From NCBI GenBank assembly GCA_019058315.1, contig JAHPZH010000002.1:973910-1037909 (forward strand): DNA of 64,000 bases, in the 5' to 3' direction. Below are positions 4,451-14,579 of the stretch, one piece after another (the stretch's first letter is position 1; each line of letters opens with the position of its first letter). The stretch is from Candidatus Helarchaeota archaeon (lineage in GTDB: Archaea > Asgardarchaeota > Lokiarchaeia > Helarchaeales > RDOG01). Position numbers and translations under genes: made by a program. Below the pieces are notes generated by a model, which saw nothing but the letters and a program-made list of their open reading frames with translations, made no database searches and was not told the origin of the DNA.

Positions 4451-7400
4451 TTAAAAATATTTTGGAATAAATTTTATGATTTTAGAAAAAGTCGATATTT
4501 TTCCAGAAAATGACTCCAGTTCTTCTGAATAAAAGTCTTCAACTTCATTAAGCAAATTTAATAATTTATTTCTTAATATATTCAAATTTTCTTCTGTTAT
4601 TAAAGCAACGGTAATATATTTACCATACTCAAAAAGTATTGTTACTTCTTCTTGTTCAATAATTTTAATTTTTGTCTGATTTTCAGTTAATTCTTGGATT
4701 AATGAAGATAATCCCATTAAACCTCCAGTAACCAAGCCAGGTGAAACTTCTTTATCCTTTCTAAATGAATGATCAAAGATACATACTCCTTGTGGCATGT
4801 AAAAATAAATATGGAGGATTCTATCCTTCCAATTAGCTTCTGATTCTGCTAGTTTATCGATGTTCTGCATTTCCCGAATATTCGTTGAGGAACTAATTTC
4901 GAGTGGACAAGAAGGTGCAGAAATTCCAACACTACTCTCAGAAATTAAGGGTTTTTCAATGAGATTTAATGCTGATGTTAGAATCATTTGTTCATTTTTT
5001 ATTAATTTCAGATATTTTAAGATTTCTTGTCTCCTTTTAATATATCCCGCATTTCCAAAAATATCAAGGGCACTATTAAGATAGTTTGTTGCTATGCTTA
5101 GATAATGATTCTTTTTATAATGATCTGTTTCATTATCTGATTGAATGATATGCCAAATACCATCAAAAAAAGTAGATGTTGCAATAGCCCATTTGGATTC
5201 TTGCGTAAAGCCCCCCAATTCGTAGTTCTTCGCTGAATCCCTCAAAAACATCTTAATTTTTTTGTAATATTCAGTCTTATCATCAAAATCTTTAGTTCTA
5301 TCAAATAAAGTCCCATATTGAATTGCAGAACAATAGGAAGAATTTCCTAAAGATAATTTTTTCATTCTATTTTCTGGAAAGATATTACTCGCTTTTTCAA
5401 ATAATTCCGAAGCACTTTTATAAAGGTCCGATTTCTGTTCAAAATCTGCTCGTTCCATCTGTTCCCAAGCCCTACATAAATAAAATATTGCGGTTAACTC
5501 CTCTTTTTCTCGTTGTAGTCTAAAAGTTTGGCATAATTTTTCAAAGAGAGAACTAGCCCTTACATATAATTCTGCTGCGAGTATTCGATTGCCTCTCAAA
5601 CTTTCCAACCTTGCCGTTTCTATCTGATAACGTGCATTACAATAGATCTCCCTGATCTGCGCCACCTGAATTAACTTCTTGAGTCTATCTATGACTTCAG
5701 GAGGTTTACCATCGGAAAGATATAAACTGATGATTTTAATTGCTTCTTCAAATTTCCTATTAGCAGCTTGATATTTCTCTGCCGATTCTTGGTGCTTATT
5801 TTCCTTGCTAAAACTTTCTGCTTTCTCTAAAATACTCCATGCACTATAAAATGCTGCTTCATAATTATATCCAGGAATTTTTTCTAAAATCGAGCTTGCT
5901 TTTTCATATTTTAATTGCGCATTATTATGATCTTCAACAATATGATACGATTTTGCAGTTTCAATTAGATTCCAAGCAGTCATGTAATCTTTTTCTTTTT
6001 CAATCTTTTGTACTAATTCAGTATGTGTGAGTGTAGCAATCGCTTTATCAAATGAATCGATTGCGTTCTTATAATTCACTGCTGCAGAAACGAAATTCCC
6101 TAATCTATCGTCTATTTGTGCTATTTGAATAAATCCAGATCCCATTAAATTGAAATATCCTTTATCTTTACAAAATTTAATAGCTTCTGTATAAGAATGA
6201 TATGATTCCTTGAAAATTTCAGCATCTTCTGTTAATCGTCCTATTTCATGATAAGAATCTCCTATTAAAAATAGGTTTTCAATATGAAATATAGCGACAA
6301 TCATCTTTTTGCTTTGTGTTAAATATTCTACCACATATTTATGGTATTCCAATTTTTCCGATATTTTTAATGCGTTTTTAGCCAATAACATTGCCGTTCT
6401 AGATGCACAAAACAAAAATCCAGAATAATAAAAGTAAGTATTAAATAGATTGGGATTTTGATAATCTTTAACTTCGTTAAAAATGTCCGCTGCAATTTTA
6501 AGGTGCTTTTGCCTTTCATTTTCATCCTTAAGTAAGTCCCCTAAGATCGTATTTACAGTACTCATTTCTACTTTAAATAATAAATTATATATTTTATGAT
6601 TTGGGTCATTTACAATAGATACCTTACTCTGAGCTAACTGGAGTAGTTCTAAAATCCTTTTTGCTAATTCAAGACGCTGGATCTCAGGAGATGAACGATT
6701 AAGAGCTCCAACTAAAAAGACTCCTGCAGTATAAAGGAGATTATGGGCTCCCAAAGTCTTAGGATATAATAATGTTGATGAAGCAATACAATGGGTTAAA
6801 TCATCTGTTATAAATTTAAAATCTTCTGCTGAAAATCCTAAATCTATTAAAAATATTGCAGTAGTGTATCTGGTGTAATAAAATAAAACCAAAGGATTAT
6901 GTGCACCAATACTTGGTAATAATTTTACTCCACTTCCAAGCCATTTCTGAGCTTTCTTTAACCATTTCTTTTGTTCAAATATATTTTTTGCATAATATGT
7001 CGAAAATGCTGAAAATGTCCATGAATAGAATGTATAAGCATAAAAAAGACTAAGAGTATTTGCTGAATTTTTGAATTTTTCAATCATTTCTTCAAACATT
7101 TCTTGCATTTTGTATAAAAACTGTTCAAGGTTTAAATATTCAGATGGTAGAAAGTGAGTAGTCCAATGGGTAAATTCCATGATACTATCAATTAGATAAT
7201 AAAGGTAAATGTCGGAAAATTCTTTTTGTTTTTTAATGTCATCCCATATTGAAGCCAATAAATTATCAAATTCTAAAACCATTTCCTTTAAATCTGCTTT
7301 TTCATCGATTTTGATAAGTTTTCCACCAATAAGTGAACTTAATGCCCGATTTTCTAATATTGCATTTTTTAACGATTCATTCGGATTTCCCTTTTCTAAA

Positions 7401-10871: not shown

Positions 10872-11027
10872 TTGGATACAGGAAGAAAAGATGAACGTGG
10901 TAGAGAGCTATACAAAGTGACTTGTGCAGATTGTGGCAAGGAAACCGAAGTTCCATTTAAACCAGACGGATCAAGGCCTGTATATTGCAGGGATTGTTAT
11001 AGGAAACAAAGACCTAAAAGGTATTAG
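10872..11027 (+). CDS. CxxC-x17-CxxC zinc-ribbon small protein
   Basis: Below the ORF track cut-off. TTG start after GGTGA; MDTGRKDERGRELYKVTCADCGKETEVPFKPDGSRPVYCRDCYRKQRPKRY (51 aa) has the family signature CADCG..TEVPF.P...RPVYC..C. Confidence 0.92.
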   Translation: MDTGRKDERGRELYKVTCADCGKETEVPFKPDGSRPVYCRDCYRKQRPKRY

Positions 11028-11122
11028 AAAATTAATGTCATGTAAAACGAATTAAAGTCATTATATCTTTCTATTTAAATCAATTTTTTTATTTTAAATT
11101 AATTAATATTATTTAATTCTGC

Positions 11123-11854
11123 TCAGGTTTTCCAGACTTCGTCTAAATATTTCATTAGGACGAAATTTTCAACATCTCTTAGAGATTTTATTGAATTATC
11201 CTCCCGAAGTGCTGTTTCCATACTTTTTTGAATATCTTCATTTATCTTTAATTTTTTTGCTTTATATTTCAATAATTCTATTTTGACATCTATGGACGGA
11301 TCGGGGAATTCAATTTCATATAAACGGTCACGAATAGCATTATCAATAAGGTCTACTCGGTTAGAAGTTAATAGAATAAATTCTTTAGCGGTATTAAGAT
11401 TATCAATTTGGTGGAAAAATACATTCAAATGCCCTAGATACCAAGCTTCCAGCTTTATTCCCCAATCTCTAGTTATAAACAAGCCATCAGCGTCATCAAA
11501 CATATATATTATCGGAGAAATTTTTTTAGTTTTCTCCTGTCCACGTTTAAACACATTTCTAATTCTCTGTTCAGTCTCTCCGTATTTATGATGTGCAAGA
11601 TGTCCACAATCAGTGAAAATCATATTTTTCTGCCAAATATCTTCAGCTCCAATTTCAGTAACAACCCGTTCAATGACTTTAAGCGCTGTTATTGTTTTAC
11701 CATTTCCCGGAACGCCATAGAATAAGACTCCTTTTATTCCATCGGTAATTCGATTATCATATTGATGTTTTATTAAGGAAACACATTTAGAACAAACCTC
11801 GTTATGAAATGTTCCTAGTAGAGGTGTATCTTGTAATTCTTCTATTCGAACCAT
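11123..11854 (-). CDS. Minimal single-domain AAA+ ATPase
   Basis: Walker A GVPGNGKT, pore loop KYGETE, Walker B IYMFDD, sensor 1 LTSNR, SRH IDNAIRDR. Confidence 0.88.
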   Translation of the reverse strand: MVRIEELQDTPLLGTFHNEVCSKCVSLIKHQYDNRITDGIKGVLFYGVPGNGKTITALKVIERVVTEIGAEDIWQKNMIFTDCGHLAHHKYGETEQRIRNVFKRGQEKTKKISPIIYMFDDADGLFITRDWGIKLEAWYLGHLNVFFHQIDNLNTAKEFILLTSNRVDLIDNAIRDRLYEIEFPDPSIDVKIELLKYKAKKLKINEDIQKSMETALREDNSIKSLRDVENFVLMKYLDEVWKT

Positions 11855-11965
11855 TTAAGCCACAGCTCTATTGTTGGCATAATTAGCTAATAATTTTAAA
11901 TTTTTGTGAAATATTAAAATTTAATATAATTAAAAATATTTTTAATTGCTAATTTACATTTTTAG

Positions 11966-12658
11966 ATGATTAATATGAATAATGAGGAATATGAAGATAC
12001 ACCACCGGAGAAAATGACTATCTCCATAATGCTTCGCTTGGTAGGATTAGCATTCATTTCTGGAGCTCTACTGGGACAAGCAATCGATTTTGCCTACCCT
12101 ATGTTTGGTGCTTTGCATTATCATGATCCTACTATACAAATTCCAAGTCTGGGTATTGAATTTTGCTGGTGGATCCCGATCTTGTATGGGACTGCTGGAG
12201 TTATATTAATGCTTGGATATGTGTTATTTGATAGATGGACACATCAGAAACCACGCGGAGGGTTTAACCCGAGATGGAGATTTGTACTTGCAGGAATAGG
12301 ACTTTTTGCCCTACAATTTTACGGAGGACCCTTTTTGTATGGTATAGGAGTCCCCAATTTTTGGCTCTTTTTTATCACAGTTTCGACTGGTCTACTTGTT
12401 TGGTGGGTGTTTGACCGGACGTATGGAGGTTTATTCATGCTCTTTCTGGTCGCCACTATTGGACCTTTACTTGAGTTCACAATGATTAACGTTCTAAATC
12501 TTTACCATTACTCCGGACCGGATATAGTTGGTCTCCCTCTGTGGATTATAGGCGCATATATGTGCGGGGCCGCTCCCAATGGCATCTTGGCTCGTAAATA
12601 TCTTGTTTATCTCCAAAAAACCAAGTCGAAAGATCTTGTAAAGGGAAAAGAACTCTAG
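11966..12658 (+). CDS. INSIG-family (insulin-induced gene-like) six-TM membrane protein
   Basis: WWIPILYGTAGVILMLGYVLFD and WWVFDRTYGGL...LYHYSGPDIVGLPLW...GILAR parallel the recalled INSIG motifs WWVPPCCGTA..V.GLLYPCID and WWTFDRSRSG...YQYTSPDFL...W...GNIGR. Confidence 0.8.
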   Translation: MINMNNEEYEDTPPEKMTISIMLRLVGLAFISGALLGQAIDFAYPMFGALHYHDPTIQIPSLGIEFCWWIPILYGTAGVILMLGYVLFDRWTHQKPRGGFNPRWRFVLAGIGLFALQFYGGPFLYGIGVPNFWLFFITVSTGLLVWWVFDRTYGGLFMLFLVATIGPLLEFTMINVLNLYHYSGPDIVGLPLWIIGAYMCGAAPNGILARKYLVYLQKTKSKDLVKGKEL

Positions 12659-12736
12659 TTAAAATTACAATTTAGTTGAAATTCATTTTTTTTTGTAACT
12701 TCAAAATAATAAAATCCAAGTACATGGGAAATTCTA

Positions 12737-13396
12737 ATGAGCCAAAAAAAAAAGATATTTTTTAAGGTTGTAATAATTGGAGATTCTGGTTCAGGGAAGA
12801 CTTCTTTATTATATAGATATTTTCCACATAATTGGGGAATATATGCTACGCTAGGAGTTAATATAGAAAACAAGAAAATCGAAAGTGCTAAAAATAAGAA
12901 TATATCATTTTCATTTTGGGAAATAGTGGGAGATCCAAAAAAATATGACTCAGTATTTTTTAAAAAATTATATGCTGGAGCAAAAGGCATTATATTAATA
13001 TTTGACGTTGGAAATACAGAATCTTTTAGAAATCTTTCTTATTGGCTAAATGATATCAATAAATACATTGATTATGAATTTGCTGGAATCCTAGTAGGAA
13101 ATAAGATGGATAGGGCAGATCGAAAAATAACTTATTCACAAGGTCAAAAATTTGCAGATAAAATTGGCTTTGAATATATCGAAACATCTGCAAAGACAAA
13201 TATAAATGTAAAGGAAGCATTTCAATACATTATTGAGGAAATTTTACATCCTAAAAAAGAAAAAATAAATGAAATTGTAAAAAGGATTAAATATATTGAA
13301 TCATTACTTAAAGAAAAAAGTTTAAAATTAGAAGATTATCAACACCTAAAAAAAGAATTAGATGATCTCTCTGAAAAATTAGAAAAAATTTCATAA
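12737..13396 (+). CDS. Rab-like small GTPase with divergent G3 box and C-terminal helical extension
   Basis: FKVVIIGDSGSGKTS, ATLGV, WEIVGD (G3), LYAGAKGIILIFDV, GNKMD and ETSAK. Confidence 0.92.
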   Translation: MSQKKKIFFKVVIIGDSGSGKTSLLYRYFPHNWGIYATLGVNIENKKIESAKNKNISFSFWEIVGDPKKYDSVFFKKLYAGAKGIILIFDVGNTESFRNLSYWLNDINKYIDYEFAGILVGNKMDRADRKITYSQGQKFADKIGFEYIETSAKTNINVKEAFQYIIEEILHPKKEKINEIVKRIKYIESLLKEKSLKLEDYQHLKKELDDLSEKLEKIS

Positions 13397-13490
13397 TTTT
13401 AAGGAAAAAATTAAAGTGAATAAAATTCTTGTTTAAAAATAAGAAAAAAGAGAATAGTTTATTTTAATATTAAAGAGAAAGAGTGATTAT

Positions 13491-14579
13491 TTGTTTCAAA
13501 TAAATTTTGTTGAATTAACCTCGTTATTTCTCTATATTGTGTTTGCTTTTAATTCATTTTTTCTCGCATTCATGTTTTTCTTAAAGTTAAAGCGAGCGAG
13601 GGGATCTGGAATCGATCTAACACCATTTTTGGGGTTAGAAATTTTTTTGCTTCTTTTTGGTTTAGTACATATAGTGTGGGCATATTACCATTTCTATATT
13701 TACACATTTGAGTTAGCATTATATGGATTTGATTTTGAATTAGTAGGTATCTACAAAGTTTCTATTTTAATGACATATTTGGGACTTATAGGGTTTATTT
13801 TCTTTTCGGAAAAAATGGTGGGAAAAACCAAATTTATATTCACTTTTTTTAGTATTGGTTGTTGTATTTATGGAATATTTTTCACATTTACAATACAAGA
13901 CTTACGATTATTTACTTATTTCACTAATCCGGTTAATGTGACCGTTATATTCGCAAGTTTTTTATATACTCTTGTATTTAAAACGAAAGGGAAGATTCGG
14001 CAAAAAATGGCATTTAGTTTTATAGCTTTTTTAGGTTTTACTTTCTTTTTTGTTCTCGACACAAATATAGGTAGAAATCTTTTAAAATTACCTATCGAGG
14101 TCACATCTGTAATAGCGAAAATTGGTTTAATAATTACTTTAAATATTCAAGGAATCATTTTTCTCAGTTTTGAAACATTTACAGAGTTTGGGTGGAAGGA
14201 AAGACTAAAAGAACTTTATATTATTGCTCCTAGTGGAGCAACTCTTTTTCACCATTCTTTTATATCCAATATAGAAACTCCAACTCATGACTTAATATCA
14301 AGTGGTCTTATAGGAGTAAAGGGGATCTTGGGTGAGATCATGGAAAGTAGACAACATTTAAAAATTGTGGACCATGAAGATGTAAAAATTATTTTTGAAT
14401 ATGGTCGATATACCACAATGGCTCTAATTGTTTATGAAAATCTAAGTATTTACCACTCAAAACTAGCATCCCTAAGCAATCAATTTGAGGATTTATTTCA
14501 AGATATTCTTGCAAATTGGGCCGGTGAAATTGAGGTCTTCCTCCCAACAAAACGATTAATAGAAAAAACCTTTGATTAA
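13491..14579 (+). CDS. Seven-TM membrane protein fused to C-terminal longin-like domain
   Basis: About 7 hydrophobic helices, then WKERLKELYIIAPSGATLFHHSF...LISSGLIGVKGILGEI...IIFEYGRY...WAGEIEVF, which aligns by eye with the C-terminus of 4451-7825. Confidence 0.8.
   Translation: MFQINFVELTSLFLYIVFAFNSFFLAFMFFLKLKRARGSGIDLTPFLGLEIFLLLFGLVHIVWAYYHFYIYTFELALYGFDFELVGIYKVSILMTYLGLIGFIFFSEKMVGKTKFIFTFFSIGCCIYGIFFTFTIQDLRLFTYFTNPVNVTVIFASFLYTLVFKTKGKIRQKMAFSFIAFLGFTFFFVLDTNIGRNLLKLPIEVTSVIAKIGLIITLNIQGIIFLSFETFTEFGWKERLKELYIIAPSGATLFHHSFISNIETPTHDLISSGLIGVKGILGEIMESRQHLKIVDHEDVKIIFEYGRYTTMALIVYENLSIYHSKLASLSNQFEDLFQDILANWAGEIEVFLPTKRLIEKTFD

Follow-up and report, generated by a model that had tools for sequence, protein, structure and literature searches.

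An INSIG-family membrane protein gene of an Asgard archaeon, shared with a small prokaryotic branch

The locus

The window analysed here is a stretch of 64,000 nucleotides from a Candidatus Helarchaeota archaeon, and the gene under study is an open reading frame on its forward strand (11966–12658, + strand in the list of open reading frames) that encodes a six-helix membrane protein of 230 aa belonging to the INSIG family. Homologues align only from the second ATG onwards, so translation may in fact begin at 11975. The earlier note on this DNA had placed the sequence in an apparent Asgard archaeon, and an actin scoring 448 bits on the same 1.4-Mb contig bears this out.

On the opposite strand lies a divergent gene for a small AAA ATPase (11123–11854, − strand; Pfam AAA, E 2e-15). 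The intergenic region between the two (11855–11965) has a GC content of 17%, contains TATA-like AT boxes and is a putative promoter. Downstream, a Ras/Rab-family small GTPase (12737–13396, + strand; Pfam Ras, E 5e-37) and a 7TM-longin protein follow on the same strand with gaps of 78 bp and 94 bp, respectively. The direct adjacency to a Rab-like gene, to which attention had been drawn before, is thus real, and it is specific to this species-level lineage: the same gene order recurs in a contig from another study that is ~97% identical and spans 12383–14487. The spacer ahead of the Rab gene (12659–12736, + strand) carries nine consecutive T, about 27 nt past the INSIG stop codon, in a run that resembles an archaeal terminator, and a TATA-like AAAATAATAAAAT box some 21–34 nt ahead of the Rab ATG; in a related strain, 4 nt are inserted at 12691. 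The T run and the TATA-like box between the genes point to separate transcription units.

Base composition

The hand-counted GC values of two 60-nt lines, given as 40% and 52% and said to exceed the flanks, proved exact (40.0% for 12481–12540 and 51.7% for 12541–12600). Over its whole length the INSIG gene has a GC content of 41.4%, whereas the window as a whole stands at 31.4%; the gene is richer than both of its neighbours, the AAA gene (32.7%) and the Rab gene (25.5%). Codon usage had been suggested as a check, and the excess is real at synonymous sites: GC3 is 0.365 compared to a genome mean of 0.208 ± 0.04 (99.2nd percentile), and 67 GC-ending codons are observed where 39 are expected given the amino acid content (z 4.9).

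Such an excess might be taken as proof of recent import. That use of GC3 was rejected, as the same excess is found in diverged orthologues, namely those at loci L009 (0.476 vs 0.231), L003 (0.539 vs 0.439) and L006 (0.569 vs 0.405), and the orthologue at L022 has a GC3 of 0.577 on a contig of 40% GC. Synonymous sites have nearly saturated between the window and L009, in the INSIG gene as in the flanking AAA gene, yet the AAA gene stays at background GC3. Since the excess recurs across diverged orthologues, it is a lasting property of the gene rather than the signature of a donor.

Membership of the INSIG family

In animals and fungi, feedback control by sterols centres on INSIG. The resemblance of the window protein to it had been read from four motifs, and these are present in the right order: WW.P...GTA.....L.Y...D at residue 68, WW.FDR..G at residue 146, Y.Y..PD at residue 180 and G..AR at residue 206. 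In the phmmer alignment the first three agree with INSIG-2 column for column, and the last reads G..GR in INSIG-2. This agreement is far above chance. Searching the sequences of the PDB with phmmer returned only INSIG-2 chains, human and hamster, with E 9.5e-10 and 2e-9 (about 1e-9) and an essentially full-length match of residues 18–219 to residues 25–217; a profile of the clade to which the protein belongs matched INSIG-2 with E 2.3e-13.

The Pfam INSIG model gave a divided answer. The window protein alone reaches 24.1 bits (E 3.1e-5) over residues 68–173 only, or 22.5 bits in a scan of the whole genome for PF07281, and so falls short of the gathering cut-off of 28 bits. At the level of the clade the model does match, with 18 of 20 members at E ≤ 0.01 (best 3.9e-10), and the bacterial member P0011, at 39.4 bits, exceeds the cut-off. 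By sequence, profile and fold, the window gene is a true member of the INSIG family.

Predicted fold and conserved residues

The AlphaFold2 (AF2) model of the window protein (pLDDT 88.7, pTM 0.85) consists of six long helices (residues 19–41, 69–92, 104–126, 131–149, 153–176 and 193–228), which are predicted to span the membrane with both termini in the cytoplasm, the latter because the TM2–TM3 loop and the tail are basic. By the helix limits of the model and the alignment of the clade, TM1 (12020–12088, + strand, as are all features of the gene) ends in the motif GQxIDxAYP and contains the invariant residues G33, G37 and D41. It is followed by the WWIP..YGTA motif together with TM2 (residues 68–92; 12167–12241), and by a putatively cytoplasmic loop of the form P-R-G-G-F-N-P-x-W, which is invariant in the clade alignment (residues 96–104; 12251–12277). 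In TM3 (12275–12343), F114 aligns to F115 of INSIG-2. The segment WWVFDRT, placed by the INSIG-2 alignments (residues 146–152; 12401–12421), forms the predicted cytoplasmic end of TM4, and TM5 (12422–12493) bears the invariant G166-P167-x-x-E170. An outer loop with the motif Y-H-Y-S-G-P-D (residues 180–186; 12503–12523) leads to TM6 and a basic C-terminal helix containing G..AR-K-Y (12542–12649).

Structural comparison with MvINS and INSIG-2, which had been proposed as a check, showed that the predicted fold matches both. The top five Foldseek matches in the PDB are MvINS (4xu4, 4xu6) and INSIG-2 in Scap complexes, with TM scores of 0.67–0.80; these two are the only proteins matched with E below 1e-3, and the next match has E 0.47. 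The best structural match is MvINS of Mycobacterium vanbaalenii (E 1.5e-6, TM 0.80 by target, rmsd 3.7), the crystal of which reportedly shows a trimer. The mammalian INSIG-1/INSIG-2 proteins (PF07281; PDB 6m49, 7etw, 9pxb) likewise have six helices, with TM scores of 0.67–0.78 by target and three of the motifs in common, yet identity to INSIG-2 is only about 18–19% in the structural alignment.

Residue by residue, G39, F115, W145 and D149 of INSIG-2 correspond to G33, F114, W146 and D150 of the window protein, all four of them invariant or almost invariant across the clade. We take G39, Q132, T136, W145 and D149 of INSIG-2 to be needed for partner binding, as F115 is; Q132 and T136 are not kept and are W133 and I137 in the window protein. 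For F115, the F115A mutant of INSIG-2 loses binding to Scap (Scap/Insig preprint). Further, seven residues (G37, D41, Y52, A77, G166, E170 and Y198) do not vary among the archaeal, bacterial and algal rows of the alignment. At the positions of G166-P167-x-x-E170, INSIG-2 reads A-T-V-V-T, so that E170 has no acidic equivalent there but a Thr; at D41 it has an Asn (N47), less surely, as the pairings of D41 with N47 and of G33 with G39 fall in a low-confidence part of the phmmer alignment. INSIG-2 also lacks the longer outer loop with short strands.

Occurrence in archaea and bacteria

Among the Asgard archaea surveyed the gene is rare. It was found in one of 161 genomes of the class and one of 400 species genomes of the phylum, in both cases the genome of the window. 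For metagenome-assembled genomes (MAGs) that are 66–94% complete, failure to find the gene does not prove that it is missing; closed genomes of the class are also among those without it. A genome of the same family (G128) carries the AAA orthologue (76% identity), but no INSIG gene adjoins it. A search of 185,579 species genomes recovered just two further loci, both in bacterial MAGs (G400 and G401) that have sigma-70, lack TBP and have a GC content of 57%; their copies are 57–58% identical to the window protein. Identities across the clade range from 45 to 81%, the bacterial members included (within 55–60%). Two further clade members, at loci L019 and L020, lie on contigs of 54–58% GC beside a peptidoglycan amidase or an FadL-type outer-membrane protein. 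Collectively, the clade is a small, distinct prokaryotic branch with members in a handful of Asgard archaea of the Loki/Hel type and in several bacteria from sediment. A literature search found no work linking INSIG with Asgard or other archaea, or describing the algal branch discussed below.

Gene context did not reveal a conserved operon or partner, the neighbours in ten other loci being unrelated. At L009, whose INSIG-family protein is 79% identical, an AAA orthologue (77% identity) again flanks the INSIG gene, on the same strand in this case. An AAA gene near a bacterial copy, at L015, was considered as a further orthologue of the window AAA gene and rejected (BLASTP E 0.008).

Phylogenetic position

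Outside the clade, the best profile matches (E 1e-49 to 1e-44), from the best 150 of 711, belong to a clade in which the sequences with names are proteins of Edaphochlamys, Chlorokybus and Tetraselmis; six matches were named overall. These green-algal INSIG-like proteins (Edaphochlamys KAG2501978.1 among them) are uncharacterised. At 32–37% identity they are the nearest relatives outside the clade, and they have the same loop lengths and the motifs GP..E and Y.YT.PD, including a G-x-x-P-x-W loop equal in length to the P-R-G-G-F-N-P-x-W loop of the clade; unlike the clade, they carry N-terminal extensions of 40–100 residues. In the ESM Atlas, a Chlorophyta INSIG cluster is the best shape match (TM 0.83, rmsd 2.3 over 207 residues), and bacterial INSIG clusters rank first in the ESM feature search (0.91). 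Other bacterial PF07281 proteins (the P0126/P0140 clade and clusters from Myxococcota and Actinomycetota) share the fold class, but are only 25–31% identical, have shorter loops (in the distant bacterial clade, the TM2–TM3 loop is one of them) and form a separate clade in the tree.

In a C20 tree inferred with IQ-TREE, which is unrooted and left out opisthokont INSIG and MvINS-type sequences, the prokaryotic clade groups with green-algal rows to the exclusion of stramenopile-type rows (support 98/98) and stands next to the Edaphochlamys-type rows (96/87). Its stem is long (1.08), and its TM1 motif, GQxIDxAYP, is derived compared with the GPxxDxxHS of the algae and the distant bacterial clade. 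A grouping of that distant bacterial clade with the Asgard-type clade in FastTree (support 84) is absent from the C20 mixture-model tree. In approximately unbiased (AU) tests, neither the monophyly of the eukaryotes (p 0.068) nor that of the green algae (p 0.149) was rejected, nor was the union of the archaeal members of the clade in one group (p 0.36). The phylogeny called for earlier, with eukaryotic, algal and bacterial homologues, therefore places the clade with green algae and not outside the eukaryotes, while leaving eukaryote monophyly unrejected. A search with a mixed alignment returned clade members and bacterial forms only, with no opisthokont or MvINS-type sequences, and MvINS itself had no sequence match to the window protein (protein search to E 10) or to the clade profile (to E 1).

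Sterol-related partners in the host

Eukaryotic INSIG controls SCAP/SREBP and the turnover of HMG-CoA reductase, a known role that the earlier note had cited. In this archaeon its customary partners are missing. No match to the sterol-sensing domain (PF12349) was found at E 0.01 in the host genome, which is 94% complete, while a control search was positive in seven of 14 genomes. HMG-CoA reductase is present as a single copy in an open frame of 461 aa, which has no space for a membrane domain. For a sterol cyclase, the genome offers only a 29-bit partial match, within a frame of 328 aa, to the repeat of squalene/oxidosqualene cyclases, and the two bacterial host genomes have no such repeat. 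Unlike the hosts of mammalian INSIG, then, this archaeon lacks a Scap-type sterol-sensing domain, a membrane-anchored HMG-CoA reductase and a sterol cyclase, so that the SCAP/HMG-CoA reductase logic does not apply as such and a role in sterol, SREBP or ERAD control cannot be the same.

Origin and possible roles

The earlier note had offered two readings, a little-noticed eukaryotic signature protein or a transfer, and the evidence favours transfer for the window gene. Its occurrence in one genome among 400, the close bacterial copies, the algal kin and the missing partners together make it look like a transferred accessory protein. It is probably a stand-alone accessory INSIG-type protein with a lipid pocket, belonging to the small prokaryotic branch and working in the manner of MvINS. 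The branch would have moved between archaea and bacteria; a transfer from a eukaryote to a prokaryote, followed by exchange between bacteria and archaea, is one possible course of events.

For the way in which the archaeal protein might work, MvINS offers the best model. Although it represents a different bacterial branch, it too is prokaryotic and stands alone without a Scap partner, and diacylglycerol-like density was seen in its central pocket. The likeliest mode of action would be to bind a lipid of the membrane in a pocket within the bilayer, after the manner of MvINS and INSIG. The ligand would be a non-sterol lipid, for example an isoprenoid or a lipid of the diacyl- or dialkyl-glycerol type. 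Further, the conserved TM3–TM4 surface formed by F114, W146 and the juxtamembrane D150 may be offered to a second protein of the membrane. A sterol-sensing domain, whether of Scap or of HMG-CoA reductase, cannot be this partner, as none was found in the genome. A compact and well-conserved prokaryotic INSIG branch without a sterol-sensing-domain partner is a clean system in which to study what the fold does on its own, including the lipid that it binds and the surface that it offers to a partner.

A passive lipid sensor is not the only role that the residues allow. The invariant acidic residues D41 and E170 are missing from INSIG-2 and would suit an enzyme or a transporter at least equally well. 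The algal and prokaryotic branch could consist of membrane enzymes or lipid-handling proteins that act on an isoprenoid or another lipid through the invariant D41, E170 and Tyr residues, in the manner of membrane proteins of carotenoid synthesis with a related structure, and opisthokont INSIG would be a derived, non-catalytic adaptor; we consider this unlikely. The seven residues kept across the archaeal, bacterial and algal rows argue for it, as does a likeness in shape to DUF2878 clusters, annotated 'carotenoid biosynthesis protein family' (TM 0.69), and a weaker one to PF04240 Caroten_synth (TM 0.52 over 151 residues). A bacterial INSIG homologue also overlaps the start of a 4HBT thioesterase gene. 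The DUF2878 and Caroten_synth proteins share the fold class without a link at the level of sequence, however: none of 20 members matches PF04240 or PF11086 at E 0.01. Nor is a carotenoid- or lipid-synthesis gene a conserved neighbour at any of the loci examined, and no member of PF07281 has a known activity. Acidic residues lost from the animal proteins are invariant here, a hint that animal INSIG may derive from an older lipid-handling protein.

An INSIG gene in an Asgard archaeon also invites the claim that the sterol control system derives from an archaeal ancestor, and the evidence gathered here argues against it. On this account an Asgard ancestor passed the gene on to become eukaryotic INSIG, nearly all sampled Asgard lineages lost it, and the bacterial copies are later exports, a history that we regard as very unlikely. 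The host is indeed an Asgard archaeon, and vertical retention within one sub-lineage is suggested by the AAA–INSIG adjacency, which persists at 79% protein identity and near-saturated synonymous sites. Further, INSIG-family proteins occur widely in opisthokonts and eukaryotic algae, and the AU test leaves the monophyly of the eukaryotes standing. The distribution in one of 161 class genomes and one of 400 phylum genomes would, however, demand very many independent losses. The maximum-likelihood tree puts the clade with green algae instead of outside the eukaryotes, the stem of the clade is long and its TM1 motif derived, and its bacterial members lie within 55–60% identity. To keep the Asgard copies as relics of the source gene of eukaryotic INSIG, the green-algal affinity would have to be a long-branch effect in addition to the bacterial copies being exports, which is highly improbable. 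If it were true, INSIG-type lipid sensing would be older than eukaryotes and sterols, and the rarity of the gene would reflect massive loss. Of the two readings first proposed, transfer is thus favoured and the signature protein is not supported, given the count of one in 400 genomes, the bacterial clade members and the green-algal grouping.

Finally, little credence can be given to the idea that the INSIG-like protein is a lipid-sensing input module for the products of the two genes that follow it, the Rab-like GTPase and the 7TM-longin protein: the shared strand, the short gaps and the arrangement kept in the ~97% identical contig speak for it, but no small GTPase directly adjoins the INSIG-family gene at any of the ten other loci examined, L009 keeps the AAA neighbour with no GTPase nearby, the T run and TATA-like box intervene between the two genes, and the bacterial hosts have no such trafficking-like system. 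In the L003/L004 locus set, an Arf/RagA-type GTPase lies about 2 kb from the INSIG-family gene.

Membership of the INSIG family

The gene at 11966..12658 (+) is an ORF of 230 aa; the second ATG, at 11975, may be the true start, since this is where its homologues begin. The four INSIG motifs that an earlier note had read by eye occur in the claimed order, at residues 68, 146, 180 and 206. The Pfam INSIG model (PF07281) does match residues 68-173, but the score of 24.1 bits lies below the curated cut-off of 28. The same family matches 18 of the 20 close homologues (45-81% identity, aligned as A1), and one bacterial member of the clade that they form with the window protein reaches 39.4 bits, exceeding the cut-off. 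A phmmer search of all PDB sequences returned solely hamster and human INSIG-2, aligned over nearly the full length (E 9.5e-10 and 2e-9), and the clade profile matches INSIG-2 at E 2.3e-13. The AlphaFold2 model built from A1 (pLDDT 88.7, pTM 0.85) has six long helices. When compared with the PDB by Foldseek, it gave the structural match anticipated in the note: five significant chains, all MvINS (the Insig homologue of Mycobacterium vanbaalenii) or Scap-complexed INSIG-2 (TM by target 0.67-0.80), with the next match at E 0.47. On these grounds, family membership is secure despite the single sequence missing the Pfam threshold, and the window gene is a bona fide INSIG homologue in a small branch of prokaryotic proteins.

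Conserved residues and possible function

Residue equivalences were read from the phmmer alignment. G33, F114, W146 and D150 are the counterparts of INSIG-2 G39, F115, W145 and D149, and all four are invariant or nearly so in the clade; W133 and I137 stand where INSIG-2 has Q132 and T136. G39, Q132, T136, W145 and D149 of INSIG-2 are residues needed for partner binding. The conserved F114/W146/D150 surface may dock a membrane partner. In INSIG-2, the F115A substitution abolishes Scap binding, and in MvINS a diacylglycerol-like density sits in the central pocket (Scap/Insig preprint).

By analogy with MvINS, the most likely function would be that of a lipid-pocket membrane protein binding a non-sterol lipid. 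An enzymatic role through D41 and E170 competes seriously with this reading. Both residues are invariant, together with G37, Y52, A77, G166 and Y198, in archaeal, bacterial and algal relatives, whereas INSIG-2 carries Thr at the position of E170 and Asn at that of D41, the latter in a low-confidence stretch of the alignment. The enzyme reading also draws on a similarity in shape, a weaker one, to DUF2878 and carotenoid-synthesis membrane proteins.

The sterol-sensing-domain family has no match in the host genome (94% complete), the single HMG-CoA reductase lies in a frame whose 461 aa cannot accommodate a membrane domain, and the squalene-hopene cyclase repeat gave only a 29-bit partial match (G000:C3:886241-886495, (-), in the host genome) within a 328-aa frame whose product is more likely a prenyltransferase-like alpha-alpha toroid protein than a cyclase. 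The canonical sterol/Scap/reductase mechanism therefore cannot apply as such.

Distribution and phylogeny

The host is indeed an Asgard archaeon: actin (448 bits) is encoded on the INSIG gene's own 1.4-Mb contig, EAP30/ESCRT-II matches in the genome are above cut-off, and NCBI labels two homologues as Helarchaeota and Lokiarchaeota MAG proteins. The gene is single-copy in this genome of 5.79 Mb and 12 contigs. With A1 as profile, the host alone gave a match, both in a set of 400 species genomes from the phylum and in the complete set of 161 from the class, in the latter even at E 1e-3; some of the class genomes that lack the gene are closed. Just two further loci came out of a pattern scan over 185,579 species genomes. 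Both belong to 'Proteobacteria' MAGs of lake-sediment origin, which have sigma-70 genes, no TBP and contigs of 57% GC. Two further clade members lie on contigs of 54-58% GC, adjoining a peptidoglycan amidase or a FadL-type outer-membrane protein. Given this rarity and the bacterial copies within the clade, the suggestion of an ancestral eukaryotic signature protein is unlikely. Archaeal and bacterial members fall in one clade at 46-60% identity, and this requires one or more transfers between the domains; sediment bacteria and a few Asgard archaea have exchanged genes of this branch.

Searched by profile, 1.84 billion representatives yielded 711 matches. Among the best 150 of these, the best non-clade matches carry long N-terminal extensions, and those that can be named are algal: Edaphochlamys, Chlorokybus and Tetraselmis (green), Cyanidioschyzon (red) and Scytosiphon (brown). 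Gene context marks a separate set of short proteins as bacterial. Green-algal sequences are 32-37% identical to the window protein, and those of this short bacterial group 25-31%; by shape, the closest ESM Atlas match is a Chlorophyta INSIG cluster (TM 0.83). In an unrooted IQ-TREE phylogeny (LG+C20 PMSF, 64 rows, without opisthokont and MvINS-type sequences), the Asgard-plus-bacteria clade comprises 27 rows on a long stem (support 100/100), groups with green-algal rows at 98/98 and adjoins the Edaphochlamys pair at 96/87; the other bacterial INSIG clade is placed far from it. Green-algal INSIG-like proteins share loop lengths and the GP..E and Y.YT.PD motifs with the clade. In TM1, the clade has GQxIDxAYP, a derived form, whereas both algae and distant bacteria have GPxxDxxHS. 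AU tests, on groups chosen after inspection of the tree, gave p 0.068 for eukaryote monophyly, p 0.149 for green-algal monophyly and p 0.36 for one archaeal group inside the clade, so that none of the three is rejected. Algal affinity has the best support of the placements, though it is not proven, and the prokaryotic branch probably either descends from the green-algal branch or is sister to it.

Base composition

GC values counted by hand on two 60-nt lines of the gene, 40.0% and 51.7%, proved exact. GC3 is 0.365 against 0.208 +/- 0.04 for 2,739 long ORFs, and with amino-acid content allowed for, 67 GC-ending codons are observed against 39 expected (z 4.9). The excess over neighbouring genes recurs in every archaeal lineage examined (window 11966-12658 and homologue loci L009 8001-8690, L003 8001-8654, L006 7626-8303 and L022 2239-2901); the bacterial copies have GC3 in line with their hosts. 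Between the window and L009 copies, synonymous sites are near saturation, and the co-inherited AAA ATPase gene is at background GC3. The raised GC, common to diverged orthologues, is thus a lasting gene-specific feature rather than a donor signature; codon selection and mRNA structure are among its candidate causes.

Gene neighbourhood

As noted earlier, a Ras/Rab-family GTPase gene (12737..13396, (+)) follows the INSIG gene on the same strand; 78 bp separate the two. A ~97% identical contig from another study bridges the INSIG, Rab and 7TM-longin genes, making this order a species-level trait. The INSIG-Rab spacer holds a nine-T run followed by a TATA-like box, so that separate transcripts are likely. 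A small GTPase directly adjoins INSIG in none of ten other loci examined, which have no common neighbour, and a coupling of the INSIG-like protein to Rab is unlikely.

The sole recurring neighbour is the small AAA ATPase gene (11123..11854, (-)), present in L009, the locus of a 79%-identity relative (77% identity, same strand as INSIG), and in near-identical strains. Three arrangements are seen: divergent in the window (11123-12658), co-directional with INSIG downstream in L009 (7174-8690), and INSIG absent in the same-family genome G128 (94% complete). There, the AAA orthologue (76% identity) is followed by a 125-aa ORF and an SMC-like gene (L025, G128:C80:32580-36302). These arrangements suggest an inversion at this locus as well as a gain or loss.

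At the loci of more distant archaeal homologues, further eukaryote-like genes are close by: an Arf/RagA-type GTPase lies ~2 kb upstream of the INSIG homologue in L003/L004 (L003 5022-5915), and a TPR-PCI-JAB protein is encoded nearby in L018 (10645-12285). Within 6 kb, both L003 and L018 also have genes for an amine-oxidase-type flavoprotein and an alpha/beta hydrolase. In bacterial loci L010-L013, whose INSIG homologue is widespread (at least 24 contigs), the gene (6001-6585) runs 8 bp into the beginning of a 4HBT-type thioesterase gene (6578-6979). Such an overlap might reflect translational coupling, possibly tying the fold to acyl-lipid metabolism.

Other features of the window

A 51-aa CxxC...CxxC zinc-ribbon ORF with a basic tail (10872-11027, (+)) is found on by far the most metagenome contigs of its 7-kb stretch, many from other organisms. 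A depth spike covers 10872-11105 in all four runs, and one related strain has 91 other letters in place of segment 10567-11127. One uninterrupted frame of 12,672 codons (25951-63969, (-)) takes up more than half of the window.
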